The notes under the pieces were generated by a model that was not told where the DNA came from, ran no database searches, and saw only the letters and a program-made list of their open reading frames with translations. A DNA stretch of 64,000 bases from Candidatus Saccharimonadota bacterium (GTDB lineage Bacteria > Patescibacteriota > Saccharimonadia > Saccharimonadales > UBA10212), in NCBI GenBank assembly GCA_016176605.1, contig JACOWW010000002.1:41432-105431 (forward strand). The letters are read 5' to 3'. The position numbers and the translations under genes are program-made. Every line of letters starts with the position of its first letter. Position 1 is the first letter of the stretch. This document shows positions 12,136 through 62,214 of this stretch, in pieces.

Positions 12136-12900
12136 ATGGCTAAAAACGTAATCGCGATCTTGAACCAAAAAGGCGGCGTAGGCAAAACTACCACCGCAAT
12201 TAATTTGGCGGCCTTTTTGACTAAAACCGGGCGGTCGGTGCTGGTCGTGGATGCCGATCCACAGGCTAACACCACCAGCGGCTTGGGACTGGATAAAAAC
12301 TCGCTGGACTCTACGTTGTACGACGTCCTGTTTTCGCACCCCGAAGCATCAACTACAATCCAAAAAATAGGCCGCGTTGGCTTATATTTGCTACCAGCCA
12401 ACGCCAACCTGGCCGGCGCCGAAGTGGAACTAGTAAATACGCCGGCCCGAGAACTTCAGCTTAAAAAAGTACTCGATCAATTGGACTTTGATTACATTTT
12501 GATCGATTGCCCACCATCGCTCGGTCTTTTATCGGTTAACGCTTTAAGCGCGGCGACAGACGTCCTAATTCCCGTACAAAGCGAATATTACGCCATGGAA
12601 GGCCTCAGCCAGCTTCTGGCCACCATCCAGCAGGTCAGGCAGGCCCTGAACCCCAATCTTAACATCTTAGGTGTCGTTATTACGCTTTACGATAACCGCA
12701 CATCTTTATCACAGCAGGTAAAGACTGAGCTGGAACGCCATTTTGGCGACAAACTCTTCGAGACGTTAATACCGCGTAATGTACGGCTGGCCGAGGCGCC
12801 GAGTTTCGGGCGTACTATAATAGAACATGATAAGTGGAGTAAAGGCGCCCGAGCCTACAAGGCATTAGCCAAGGAACTAGAAAGAAGACTACAATCATGA
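12136..12900 (+). CDS. parA: chromosome partitioning ATPase ParA/Soj
   Basis: NQKGGVGKTTT, DADPQAN, IDCPPSLG motifs. Confidence 0.95.
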   Translation: MAKNVIAILNQKGGVGKTTTAINLAAFLTKTGRSVLVVDADPQANTTSGLGLDKNSLDSTLYDVLFSHPEASTTIQKIGRVGLYLLPANANLAGAEVELVNTPARELQLKKVLDQLDFDYILIDCPPSLGLLSVNALSAATDVLIPVQSEYYAMEGLSQLLATIQQVRQALNPNLNILGVVITLYDNRTSLSQQVKTELERHFGDKLFETLIPRNVRLAEAPSFGRTIIEHDKWSKGARAYKALAKELERRLQS

Positions 12901-13040
12901 AGTTTACCGTTCACCGTTCACCGTTCACCGTGCATTTACGATTGGCCGTTTACAGTGAAAAGCTTAAAACAGAAAACAGAAAACATATTGAAAACCGAAA
13001 ACTGAAAATTGTAAACCGGCTGGGAGGCGTTTGTGGCTAA
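12897..13040 (+). other. 7-bp periodic repeat spacer carrying a 47-aa ORF that bridges parA and parB
   Basis: (TTCACCG)n then (GAAAACN)n; ATG overlaps the parA stop (ATGA); TAA overlaps the parB GTG by 8 nt. Confidence 0.65.
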
Positions 13041-13899
13041 ATTATCACTGGGCCGCGGCTTTGATACATTAATACCGACAGAACTTGATACTGCAATCCT
13101 GCAAGAAGAAGGTGTTCGTATACATAAATTACTCATTAGTGAAATAGTGCCTAATAAGGCCCAACCGCGCCGCGGATTTGACAAAACCGAGCTTTCAGGC
13201 CTCACGGCTTCCATTAAAAAACACGGTGTGCTGCAGCCCATAATTGTTGTCCGCCATAGTAAAGATGATAACTACCAAATTGTGGCTGGCGAGCGGCGCT
13301 GGCTGGCCGCCAAAGCAGCGGGCCTTAAGCACATACCCTCAATAGTCCGTTCACTACAAGAACTCGAACAGCTGGAACTAGCTATAATCGAAAATATCCA
13401 AAGGGTAGATCTCTCGCCGCTGGAGCAGGCCATGGCCGTGTATAAATTACAACATAAATTTAGCCTAACTTTGGAAGCCATCGCTGAAAAATTAGGCAAA
13501 GCCCCTTCAACCATAAGCAATATGGCCCGTTTACTAGAGTTGCCGGACGATGCCCGCCAGGCGCTACAAGATAGAAAAATTAGCGAGGGGCACGCCCGGG
13601 CAGTACTAGCCCTTAGAGGGAAGTCGAATAAACAACAAGAATTACTAGATTGTATATTAAACAACAGTTGGACTGTCCGCCAGGCCGAACAATTTGTAGT
13701 TGCCGCTAAAGCTGGTGCTTCTTTGGACCAGGCCAAAGGCCGCACAAAAAACGAGTCAGAAATTACAAAGAGTCTTTCCAGAAAACTAAATCGCGATGTA
13801 AAAGTCAGGCATACAGCCAAAGGCGGGCAGTTGATTATTCATTTTAAAAACGAAAAAGACCTAAGCAAGCTAGCAGAGCAGCTTGCTAAAGGCAAATAG
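13033..13899 (+). CDS. parB: chromosome partitioning protein ParB
   Basis: LGRG, GVLQPI, IVAGERRW, ENIQRVDL motifs. Confidence 0.95.
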   Translation: MAKLSLGRGFDTLIPTELDTAILQEEGVRIHKLLISEIVPNKAQPRRGFDKTELSGLTASIKKHGVLQPIIVVRHSKDDNYQIVAGERRWLAAKAAGLKHIPSIVRSLQELEQLELAIIENIQRVDLSPLEQAMAVYKLQHKFSLTLEAIAEKLGKAPSTISNMARLLELPDDARQALQDRKISEGHARAVLALRGKSNKQQELLDCILNNSWTVRQAEQFVVAAKAGASLDQAKGRTKNESEITKSLSRKLNRDVKVRHTAKGGQLIIHFKNEKDLSKLAEQLAKGK

Positions 13900-13998
13900 A
13901 AATTAGAAAATAGCAAATAGTATGCCGCACAATTTATCTACTCAACAAAAATTCTAGTCGCTGGTTCCTAATTACCAATTTCTGTTTCCTAGTTTCTA
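13894..13998. repeat. 7-bp periodic inverted-arm spacer between convergent genes
   Basis: AAATAGA/AATTAGA units followed by complementary TTCCTAA/TTCCTAG units. Confidence 0.7.
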
Positions 13999-14640
13999 AA
14001 ATCGTTGGGCTTTGCTTAGCGGGATGACACGTAGCGCTAATTTGCCGACAATTTTTTCTGCCTTGACTGGTCCAAAATAGCGCGAATCTTCAGAATTAGT
14101 GCGGTTATCACCGCTAACGAACACTTCATCACTGCCAAGTGTGATATCCGTATTGCCTGGGGTGGTAGGCGAAGCGATGCGATATAAGCCGCTTTTGTCT
14201 GGATCAAAACCACCCGGGTAGTCTTTGTTATAAACGCTAACTTGTTCGTTTTTAACCACCACTCGCTCGCCGGGCAGCCCTATTACCCTTTTGATTAGTT
14301 GTTTTTCGCGGTTTGTACCGAAGTTAAGACCCTCTTGGTTAAAGATTATTATGTCGCCGCGATGGGGAATATAGGCCTGTCCGCCCAGGCGCGCCAGAGT
14401 CCTGGGAATTTTATTCACAATTAAACGGTCGTTGTTTTGGAGGGTTGTTTCCATGCTGCTACCCTCCACTTGGTAGGACTGGATAACAAATTTGGTCAGT
14501 CCAAAAGCCAGGACAACTGCCGCCGCAATGATGCTGAGTGTCGAAATAACTTCTTTGGAACGGTGAGATAAACCGGCCCACTGACTGCGGATGCGACCAA
14601 AAAGCAAATCGCCGCTAGGAATTTTATTGTCGGGACCCAT
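13996..14640 (-). CDS. lepB: signal peptidase I
   Basis: GSSMETTL, LIKRVIGLPGE, GDNRTNSEDSRYFG motifs. Confidence 0.95.
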   Translation of the reverse strand: MGPDNKIPSGDLLFGRIRSQWAGLSHRSKEVISTLSIIAAAVVLAFGLTKFVIQSYQVEGSSMETTLQNNDRLIVNKIPRTLARLGGQAYIPHRGDIIIFNQEGLNFGTNREKQLIKRVIGLPGERVVVKNEQVSVYNKDYPGGFDPDKSGLYRIASPTTPGNTDITLGSDEVFVSGDNRTNSEDSRYFGPVKAEKIVGKLALRVIPLSKAQRF

Positions 14641-14709
14641 AAACCATCATTATAACCCATCAGGGTTGGCACAGTGCGTAGGTCCTGCTAATGCTATACT
14701 GGTCAAGAC

Positions 14710-60553: not shown

Positions 60554-61222
60554 ATGCGAAATAGAAACCAAAATGGGTCGGTTGCGTCTTTTGTTACTAT
60601 TTTTATTTTAGCCTTAGCATTGCTAGGAACAGCAGTTTTTGCCGGCTGGGCATTCATGGGCCGCCAGGATTTCAAAAACAATTCGGACAAAAAGGTTGAA
60701 GCAGCAGTAGAGAACGCCAAAAAAGTCCAGGAATCGGACTTGAAATTAAAGTTTGACGAAGATGAAAAGAAACCGAACGAAACCTACAAAGGTTCTACAA
60801 CATATGGCACGGTAACGTTCGATTATCCAAAGACCTGGAGCGGCTATGTTGACGAGACTTCTACCAGCCAGCCGATTAACGGTTATTTCCATCCTCATAT
60901 AGTGCCCGGCTTGCAAAGTAAAACAGCTTATGCCCTTCGTGTGGAATTGGTAAATACCGACTACAGCTCGATTGTTAAGCAGCATGATTCGCAAATAAAG
61001 GACGGCACCGTTACAGCTAACGCTTATGTCCCGCCTAAACTTGTAGGCGTAGCTAATGTCCAGCCGGGCACCAAACTGGACGGAGCCTTGGACCAAGACA
61101 CCACCGGCTCGATGGTGATCATCAAAGTCCGCGACAAAACCCTGCAAATTTATACACAGAGCAGCGATTTCCTTAAAGACTTCAACGATACTATCCTCGC
61201 CTCTTTAACCTTCGCCCCCTAG
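60554..61222 (+). CDS. membrane-anchored hypothetical protein (PsbP-like C-terminal fold possible)
   Basis: N-terminal TM helix, TFDYPKTW, ILASLTF end. Confidence 0.75.
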   Translation: MRNRNQNGSVASFVTIFILALALLGTAVFAGWAFMGRQDFKNNSDKKVEAAVENAKKVQESDLKLKFDEDEKKPNETYKGSTTYGTVTFDYPKTWSGYVDETSTSQPINGYFHPHIVPGLQSKTAYALRVELVNTDYSSIVKQHDSQIKDGTVTANAYVPPKLVGVANVQPGTKLDGALDQDTTGSMVIIKVRDKTLQIYTQSSDFLKDFNDTILASLTFAP

Positions 61223-61354
61223 CCCCTCTGCATAAGGTCCAACCTTGGATAAAACAAAGAGTTTTTAGTAAAAACGACTACGTTTTACCTATTTTTATCC
61301 AAGGTTAGACCTTCCAGTAAGTGCTATAATTTGATTATTAACTTTTAGGGGTAT

Positions 61355-62110
61355 GTGTTCTGGATGAGGAAAAATAAAATCGGCAATGACGCCGCAAAAA
61401 TCGCCCCGATGTACGCACTGCTTTCCGCTTTGAGCGACGATTTAAGCCTGCCGCTGCTGCAGATTAAAAACAGCGTTGAGGCATTGCAGCAGGTCAGTTT
61501 TGCCAGAGCGGCCGCCCGCCTGCAGGCCGAAAAGATTAATTTAAGCGCCGACAACGGTTTGCAATTAATAGAAGCCTATAAACTGGTACTCAAGGCCGGC
61601 GAAATGGCCCACGAGGAGTTTGAACCAGTAGCCATTGGCGCCGTACTGCAAGAAGTGGCGCATCAGCTGACTCCATACGCTAAAAAATACGACACTGATC
61701 TTTTGGTTGATGTACAACATCGTCTAACGCCGGTCCTGGCCCACCAGCCCAGTTTGAGCGCTGCCCTGCAAGTTTTGAGCGCCAGTATGATCCGTGCCCA
61801 AGCCGCCCAGGTCCAACAAAAGCGCTACAAGTTGTTGCTCGGCGCACATAGGAGCGCCGACTACGCCATATCAACCGGAGTATTTAGCAGTATCCACGGT
61901 TTAAGTGACAAGACCCTGCGTAGCGCCCGTGGGCTGGTCGGCAAAGCCCGCCAACCCCTGCCGGCTATTCCGGCCGGCGCTGCCAGCGGCGTATTGATTG
62001 CCGATATGCTCTGCAGTGCCATGTGGCAGCCGCTGCGCGCCGCCGCCCATGGCGGCTTGCATGGCTTGGCAACAGCCGTGCCGATCAGTAAACAACTGCA
62101 ATTCGTCTAA
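61355..62110 (+). CDS. degenerate histidine-kinase-like protein
   Basis: ALSDDLSLPLLQI resembles an H-box lacking His; followed by a receiver-domain gene. Confidence 0.6.
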   Translation: MFWMRKNKIGNDAAKIAPMYALLSALSDDLSLPLLQIKNSVEALQQVSFARAAARLQAEKINLSADNGLQLIEAYKLVLKAGEMAHEEFEPVAIGAVLQEVAHQLTPYAKKYDTDLLVDVQHRLTPVLAHQPSLSAALQVLSASMIRAQAAQVQQKRYKLLLGAHRSADYAISTGVFSSIHGLSDKTLRSARGLVGKARQPLPAIPAGAASGVLIADMLCSAMWQPLRAAAHGGLHGLATAVPISKQLQFV

Positions 62111-62112
62111 AA

Positions 62113-62214
62113 ATGCTGCGGATTAAGCAAATAGTAATTAGCAATCAGAAATTAGCAAAAATGCTTGTTCCTAGTTCCTATTTCCTACTTTCTGCTCCTG
62201 AAAGGAGCTTCTAG
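62113..62214 (+). other. 7-bp periodic spacer carrying a 33-aa bridging ORF
   Basis: ATG 2 nt after the upstream stop; TAG overlaps the next GTG by 1 nt. Confidence 0.6.

Follow-up and report, generated by a model that had tools for sequence, protein, structure and literature searches.

Open reading frames across palindromic repeat insertions at operon junctions of a Saccharibacteria genome, with a probable role in preserving translational coupling

The window considered here, meaning the whole stretch of 64,000 nucleotides that was analysed, corresponds to C7:41432-105431 of the 728-kb, 7-contig genome of a Candidatus Saccharimonadota bacterium (GCA_016176605.1, hereafter G000), which is 89% complete and the DNA of which is present in groundwater metagenome runs (nine runs found, all of DNA and none of RNA). 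At four places in this window two co-directional genes are separated by a 7-bp-periodic spacer: parA and parB, ftsE and ftsX, a LPG_synthase_TM gene and xseA, and an unknown 248-aa gene and a response regulator gene. Pfam supports ParA/ParB, FtsE/FtsX, XseA, the response regulator and LPG_synthase_TM as flanking genes. A sequence-only reading of this stretch had proposed that each spacer is open from the upstream stop to the downstream start and carries ribosomes from one gene to the next, or else encodes a regulatory peptide. Reading the sequence directly, we could confirm that all four spacers are stop-free mini open reading frames (ORFs) of 33-52 codons, which begin on the upstream stop or 2 nt after it and end on the downstream start or up to 10 nt past it; we refer to such ORFs as bridges.

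The four bridged junctions of the window

The features of the four spacers are given below, with families A, B and C designating clusters of bridge sequences, heptamer arms as found with Tandem Repeats Finder (TRF), and SD standing for Shine-Dalgarno.

12897..13040, + strand: bridge mini-ORF 1, parA/parB, 47 codons, family A; its ATGA (12897-12900) overlaps the parA stop TGA (12898-12900)
12902..13008, + strand: heptamer arms of spacer 1, GTTCACC x4.3 (12902-12931) and AAAACAG/GAAAACC (12966-13008)
13022..13027, + strand: SD-like GGGAGG, 5 nt upstream of the parB GTG
49831..49986, + strand: bridge mini-ORF 2, ftsE/ftsX, 51 codons, family A; ATGA at 49831-49834 and 49983-49986
49843..49877, + strand: 5' heptamer arm of spacer 2, perfect TTACCGT x5, pairing with an imperfect 3' arm that extends to about 49965
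49970..49975, + strand: SD-like GAGAGG, 7 nt upstream of the ftsX ATG
58418..58576, + strand: bridge mini-ORF 3, LPG_synthase_TM gene/xseA, 52 codons, family C; ATGA at 58418-58421
58431..58545, + strand: heptamer arms of spacer 3, AAACTTC x4 (58431-59) and GTTTGGT/TTTGATT (58487-58545), forming a long hairpin
58545..58559, + strand: mini-hairpin GCCTCC-AAA-GGAGGC of spacer 3, in which an anti-SD-like CCTCC pairs with the SD GGAGG (58554-58); TTTT and the ATG come next
62113..62214, + strand: bridge mini-ORF 4, unknown 248-aa gene/response regulator, 33 codons, family B, MLRIKQIVISNQKL...
62203-62207, + strand: SD-like AGGAG upstream of the response-regulator GTG
62199..62209, + strand: part of the mini-hairpin GCTCC-TGAAA-GGAGC, which encloses the response-regulator SD (SD pairing probability 0.96)

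Bridge 1 stops on a TAA (13038-13040) lying 5 nt into parB (GTG 13033, GTGGCTAA), and bridge 3 on a TAG (58574-58576) 10 nt beyond the xseA ATG (58564). Bridge 4 starts at an ATG (62113) 2 nt past the upstream TAA (62108-62110) and ends on a TAG (62212-62214) whose G is common to the response-regulator GTG (62214). Several details of the sequence-only reading proved accurate: ATGA does stand at both ends of the ftsE/ftsX spacer, TRF finds period-7 arrays in 4/4 spacers, an SD-like motif is found near the end of each (4/4, 5-7 nt before the downstream start), and in spacer 4 the TAG-bearing heptamers fall out of frame, the in-frame units being read as CAG (AAT CAG AAA) and TAT (TCC TAT). Its description of the spacers as hairpins, when compared with shuffled sequences, held strongly for spacer 2 (minimum free energy, MFE, -45.2 kcal/mol, z -3.9) and spacer 3 (MFE -43.9 kcal/mol, z -4.9; SD pairing probability 1.00) and weakly for spacer 4 (z -1.6), but not for spacer 1, whose arms are only partially complementary and which shows no folding beyond shuffles (z +2.3 on the + strand, -0.5 on the - strand).

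Bridges across the genome and its relatives

Applying TRF to the whole of G000, we found that period-7 arrays dominate its intergenic DNA, with 275 arrays of which 223 are intergenic, compared with 1-84 arrays for every other period (examples in the window lie at 13894-13920, 30153-30239, 45359-45465, 50949-51039, 53529-53648 and 59952-59983). A bridge was defined as an ORF whose start lies within -6 to +8 of the upstream stop's last base and whose stop lies within -5 to +14 of the downstream start, and the main set consisted of the 82 co-directional spacers of 50-260 nt that contain a period-7 array. Bridges occupy 43/82 of these spacers on the sense strand and 0/82 on the other strand, and are far commoner than in 200 dinucleotide shuffles of the spacer interior, which gave 5.3 +/- 1.9 (at most 13 in any of the 200); the open, coupled frames noticed in the window are therefore commoner genome-wide than shuffled repeats would give. 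A looser definition allowing alternative downstream starts added one case only (44/82). When the absence of stops alone is considered, a stop-free frame exists in 48/82 of the same spacers on the sense strand and 7/82 on the other, in 59/180 and 53/180 of the co-directional spacers without a period-7 array, and, among array-containing spacers, in 1/7 and 0/7 of the convergent ones and 0/12 and 1/12 of the divergent ones (two strands in each case).

With the limits widened to 40-300 nt, bridges were found in 43/88 co-directional period-7 spacers on the sense strand and 0/88 on the other, and in 11/195 and 4/195 of the co-directional spacers without array, 5-6 of these 11 being copies of the same element families by reading of their peptides. 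Convergent and divergent spacers together gave 3/115 on the sense strand, which, set against 43/88, bears out the link to co-directional junctions. The start of the 43 bridges lies at -4 (ATGA) in 23, at -1 in 7 and at 0 to +6 in 13, and the stop at -2 in 16, at +1 in 16 and at +4 to +11 in 11. Stop triplets within the 43 ORFs number 0/143/154 by frame and both other frames are closed in 42/43, so that openness belongs to one frame and is not due to stop-poor units. An SD-like motif stands upstream of the downstream start in 41/43 bridges, often within a small GC-rich hairpin such as that of spacer 3, and another stands upstream of the bridge's own start in 23/43, compared with 78/693 at the equivalent position of other genes; at the L29/S17 junction the old AAGGAG-N7-TAATG remains in place. 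Folding showed no strand asymmetry of the kind expected from G-U pairs on the mRNA strand, the sense strand being the more stable in 21/43 bridges (p 0.78).

Sequence clustering of the 43 bridges gave 11 groups (16 bridges in family A, 13 in B and 4 in C, plus two pairs and six singletons), and nhmmer profiles found 54, 38 and 10 loci of families A, B and C in G000. Junctions are occupied by one palindromic element each (85-260 nt), the 7-bp tandem periodicity being found inside its arms and not as whole units. Bridge copies match the profile end to end, with a conserved leader that includes the start codon and a tail that includes the SD, whereas the match of non-bridge copies is limited to the palindromic core; in the main families, the start codon belongs to the element's leader. 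Away from junctions, family-A and family-B copies usually contain 1-4 stops even in the best frame of both strands. Family B is also represented within ORFs of 246-617 aa, by six sense-oriented copies whose frame is identical to that of the bridges; the bridges themselves are placed between ParA/ParB, FtsE/FtsX, ribosomal-protein genes and rpoB/rpoC. Three family-A bridges have a second element nested in the loop (C6:16572-16782, C6:42124-42382 and C7:262634-262853; peptide ACPALNPERSSLQSDYGASRF) with the frame still open, and a 71-codon family-C bridge with a nested insert, at C7:273431-273646, had been miscalled as a gene.

Empty sites were then recognised in relatives. At ftsE/ftsX, G001 and G004 have an ATGA (-4 overlap), and in G002 the site is occupied by another hairpin element, one that is not 7-periodic and likewise forms a bridge with an ATGA at each end. 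The overlap of parA and parB is -8 (ATGGCTAA), -4 and -11 in G001, G002 and G004, and G003 has an orthologous family-A bridge, strongly diverged from that of G000 and open in both. The LPG_synthase_TM gene and xseA are separated by 2 nt in G002, the unknown gene and the response regulator by 3 nt in G001, and at this last junction G002 again has a different element, also a bridge, with a TTG start. Because relatives of the same genus show overlaps of the ATGA/TAATG type or gaps of 2-3 nt, the window spacers are recent insertions. A non-7-periodic palindromic repeat (GGTCCRACCTTGG ... CCAAGGTYRGACC) forms the G002 bridges (L024) at ftsE/ftsX and before the response regulator, and is also dispersed in the window, at 61223-61363 and 59683-59750.

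For a genome-wide comparison, nearly all of G001 (same genus) was gene-called; reciprocal best hits to G000 gave 407 pairs, and for 209 co-directional junctions of G000 the two flanking genes are both conserved in G001 and adjacent there. The test set of 49 bridges consisted of the 43 strict ones, one obtained with the looser start window and five element copies recognised by eye. Of the 43 that could be compared, 37 correspond to 12 nt or less in G001, 3 to 13-39 nt and 3 to at least 40 nt, as against 6, 7 and 22 for 35 non-bridge period-7 junctions; the excess of a tight ancestral state among bridges (37/43 vs 6/35) has a Fisher p of 6.3e-10. At such formerly tight junctions almost only one arrangement is found, namely a start on or next to the upstream stop, an open frame, an SD-like GGAG and a stop at the next start. 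The non-bridge repeat spacers of the window that were compared (50955, 53529 and 59952) are loose in relatives too, two of them being as follows.

50955..51034, + strand: comparator non-bridge spacer, 7-periodic AAATAGT/CTAGTTG with TAG in all frames; 225, 98 and 100 nt in relatives
53529..53702, + strand: comparator non-bridge spacer of family-A type, CCGTTCA x9.7; 102, 172 and 66 nt in relatives

G001 has 48 period-7 arrays, compared with 275 in G000, and its bridges number 10/173 spacers, with 4 on the control strand, so that the expansion of the elements is specific to the G000 lineage. Logan contigs from four DNA runs match the sequence but are interrupted at the repeats, and since none joins cleanly across any empty site they give no evidence of insertion polymorphism.

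The S10/spc/alpha ribosomal-protein operon lies at 250-267 kb of contig C7, with rpoB/rpoC at 279-286 kb. We compared this operon in G000 and 20 relatives, that is 416 junctions of 25 usually tight types, of which 77 have inserts of 40-300 nt and most others are -1 or -4 overlaps. In the relatives, 52/59 inserts (11 genomes) are bridges, compared with 1 on the other strand and 8.0 +/- 2.4 in shuffles, and some of these bridging inserts are not 7-periodic. In G000 the count is 15/18, and L18/S5, L6/L18 and S19/L22 are also bridges after correction of the downstream start; G001 has no insert in this operon. All bridges together make up 27 sequence clusters. A 97-aa ORF without Pfam match lies between rplB and rpsS of G000 (C7:264377-264670, i.e. 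L001:14377-14670, - strand), preceded by a bridge and overlapping the next gene by 8 nt; S19 directly follows L2 in relatives.

Rfam had 0 matches in the window at gathering score, and a single 106-nt family-B DNA query, which is insensitive, matched only G000 among 151 genomes of the order (E <= 1e-6), family-B-like bridges in G023 being seen through clustering only. Matches to the Y1 (IS200/RAYT-type) transposase PF01797 were obtained in G001, G013, G014 and G023 and not in G000 (89% complete as it is); this enzyme might mobilise palindromic repeats, but shows no clear link to element load, with few elements in G001.

The window also contains other repeats. A further repeated intergenic stretch, with a core of the type GCGGA(C/G)TGAG..CGTA...GACGCAGTA as judged by eye, is found at 48951-49153, 55317-55496, 55770-55948 and at the end of 63302-63777. 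Tandem repeats of 8 bp lie at 474-577 and 2019-2042 (AGGGTCAT x9.6, then CTATACCC and CTACAACC), directly behind the stop codon of a 999-aa ORF and ahead of a giant ORF, and a 2510-aa ORF at 2574-10106 (+ strand) has internal 159/318-bp tandem repeats at 6150-7096.

Translational coupling and its alternatives

We think it probable that the spacers are recent insertions of small mobile palindromic dispersed repeats at junctions that formerly overlapped or abutted, and that their bridge form preserves translational coupling. What the comparisons above show directly is the anatomy of the elements, the polarity of insertion from empty to filled sites and a pattern specific to strand, frame and context; translation of the bridge ORFs, and coupling as the benefit under selection, are what we infer from them. 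A ribosome finishing the upstream gene would restart on the mini-ORF, or would use the old SD in the 3' end of the upstream gene, and would melt the hairpin and the SD mini-hairpin along its way. It would then terminate on the next start codon and be handed over to the downstream gene, so that the coupling of the operon would survive the insertion and the peptide would be a by-product. The sequence-only reading had missed the recent insertion of dispersed repeats, the existence of elements that are not 7-periodic and the fact that the principle is known from mycobacterial interspersed repetitive units (MIRUs). The coupling that it had offered as one of two functions fits every test run (strand, frame, context), and unrelated elements of sister species at the same junction are also bridges; the peptide that it had offered as the other fares badly, as set out below.

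Several points tell against the proposed role in coupling. None of the four window bridges is preceded by an SD-like motif at its own start, so that these would depend on re-initiation alone. The SD pairing probability is 0.62 in bridges and 0.46 in 253 other genes (p 0.0014, with copies that are not independent), and SD sequestration is thus only moderately above background. Among the six non-bridge junctions that are tight in G001, two are near-bridges, whose starts lie at -11 and +13, and a further three are genuinely closed; these last show that closed inserts can persist at formerly tight junctions. Raw counts overstate the number of independent events, as members of a family arose from one another and the genomes are related; it is safer to count the 27 clusters and to compare filled with empty sites. 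Gene calls, and with them start sites, came from our own crude codon-usage caller (736 genes in G000), and the Pfam check covered 32 proteins, with a family match in 28.

The bridges might be translated for another reason, namely anti-polarity, in which ribosomes trailing the polymerase would prevent termination at the hairpin, entry of Rho and attack by RNases, the downstream gene starting independently from the element's SD. The hairpins are strong (mean MFE of the 43 bridges -34 kcal/mol), the element has an SD of its own in nearly all cases (the 41/43 given above), both hairpins of spacer 3 precede T runs with 58545-58559 scoring as terminator-like, and polarity and terminator effects are named as consequences of operon translation in the available part of PMC12548453. 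However, protection of this kind does not need a stop exactly on the downstream start, yet 32/43 bridges have theirs at -2 or +1; hairpins as strong as those of the bridges also occur as non-bridges in co-directional spacers, and 49000-63000 has no excess of terminator-like sites (16 vs 18.0 +/- 4.0 expected), so that we hold this explanation to be rather unlikely. It is also conceivable, if improbable, that the bridges are a by-product of insertion, in which a duplicated ATGA/RTG target site supplies the start and the stop, the family consensus happens to be open and no selection on translation acts at the site. The ATGA at both ends of the ftsE/ftsX spacer and at its empty site would be expected from such a duplication, tetranucleotide direct repeats are reported for MIRUs in the available text of PMC3184786, and part of the bridge signal is indeed inherited, since a conserved leader and tail are common to the bridge copies in families A and B. 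Nevertheless, RTGA overlaps at both ends occur in only 8/43 bridges (by reading of rows), several downstream starts at filled junctions have switched from ATG to GTG, and where members of these families lie in loose, convergent or divergent spacers, most of them have no open frame at all. A frame that happens to be open is likewise hard to reconcile with 27 bridge clusters that include non-periodic elements, with the orthologous parA/parB insert that has remained open in G000 and G003 in spite of strong divergence, and with the nested insertions of the three family-A bridges, which keep the frame.

That the mini-ORFs encode functional or regulatory micropeptides is very improbable, even though their peptides are alike within families (e.g. 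MLRIKQLVISNQKLAKILVPSSYFLVS) and the in-gene copies of family B are read in the same frame. The pooled ratio of nonsynonymous to synonymous diversity (pN/pS) in the ORF frame is 0.81, 0.81 and 0.86 for families A, B and C, compared with 0.70-1.09 in shifted frames, and diversity has no third-position peak; because a ratio of about 0.8 resembles that of the off frames, it is freedom from stops that has been kept, and not a peptide. The likeness within families is at the DNA level, and dozens of unrelated sequences have only their architecture in common. For the four window peptides Pfam gave 0 families at E up to 1, and the 51-aa ftsE/ftsX peptide had no homologue among proteins of 28-90 aa, a weak negative as small ORFs are rarely called.

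Beyond the preservation of coupling, we suggest more tentatively, as an idea that may well not hold, that several unrelated palindromic families each evolved a junction adaptor (own start and leader, open frame, SD in a mini-hairpin, stop on the next start), a natural 'bicistronic design' cassette by which selfish DNA would colonise even the ribosomal-protein and RNA-polymerase operons of an ultra-small genome and which may offer the host a new means of adjusting the stoichiometry of subunits. The arms' 7-bp periodicity could be adaptive in its own right, since heptamers without stops stay open in all three frames after slippage.

Known elements and significance

MIRUs (Supply et al. 1997, as summarised in PMC12548453 and PMC3184786) are the closest known system. 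According to the available text of PMC3184786, they are co-transcribed elements of 40-100 bp with tetranucleotide direct repeats, ORF ends that overlap the adjacent genes and empty sites in M. leprae, and that text and PMC12548453, as far as available, describe them as preserving coupling at operon junctions. As described there, the likeness extends to dispersed repeats inside operons that insert at start codons, with an ORF oriented with the flanking genes and ends overlapping the neighbours' stop and start (-4 spacing), to filled and empty sites in relatives, and to an insertion thought to barely affect expression. The elements of G000 correspond in being dispersed between co-directional operon genes (the loci of families A, B and C), in having a co-oriented ORF that overlaps or abuts its neighbours (starts at -4/-1 in 30/43, stops at -2/+1 in 32/43) and in the tightness of their sites in G001 (37/43). 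With regard to direct tetranucleotide repeats, ftsE/ftsX has ATGA on either side of the element and in its empty site, and RTGA overlaps at both ends are limited to 8/43 bridges. By contrast, tandem arrays of 40-100 bp units were not found: the elements here are long single-copy palindromes of 85-260 nt with arms of 7-bp units, whereas MIRUs are, in the available text, head-to-tail arrays of variable copy number. They also differ in belonging to Saccharibacteria of the Candidate Phyla Radiation (CPR) and not to Actinobacteria (the comparison being one of described architecture), in forming several unrelated families, many with a mini-hairpin around the SD, and in a far higher density, with about 50 bridges in 0.73 Mb and 18 ribosomal-operon junctions. 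The principle has thus been known since 1997 from MIRUs, and what is new here is the 7-bp-periodic hairpin arms, the several families and another phylum.

Rickettsia palindromic elements (Ogata et al. 2000, as cited in the available text of PMC3184786) are palindromes inserted within coding sequences. They resemble the present elements in that a palindrome is tolerated in translated sequence by means of an open frame, as in the six in-frame family-B copies inside protein genes, but differ in that the niche here is mainly the gene junction, with the element's own start, SD and stop. In the synthetic bicistronic design, or translational-coupling cassette, cited in PMC12548453, according to the available part of that paper, a leader ORF holds the SD and ends on the target start, and the ribosome removes inhibitory structure; that design is engineered, whereas the element here is natural and dispersed, with a function that is proposed. 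A literature search found no description of such elements in Saccharibacteria or CPR. The heptanucleotide STRR (short tandemly repeated repetitive) sequences of cyanobacteria are also 7-bp tandem units in intergenic regions, and are not known to have a bridging ORF, hairpin architecture or coupling role.

These observations have consequences for annotation and assembly, as the bridge mini-ORFs should not be annotated as proteins and the repeats break short-read assemblies. With dozens of junctions filled and empty within one genus, the elements provide a natural experiment on translational coupling and a set of ready-made, testable coupling cassettes. They also show a route for the spread of selfish DNA in a genome that has hardly any room to spare, as illustrated by the load of arrays in G000 relative to G001. 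Finally, because inserts at formerly overlapping junctions almost always form bridges and the same repeats elsewhere are closed, we argue that coupling in the ribosomal-protein, RNA-polymerase, ftsEX and parAB operons would be under strong selection in CPR bacteria.

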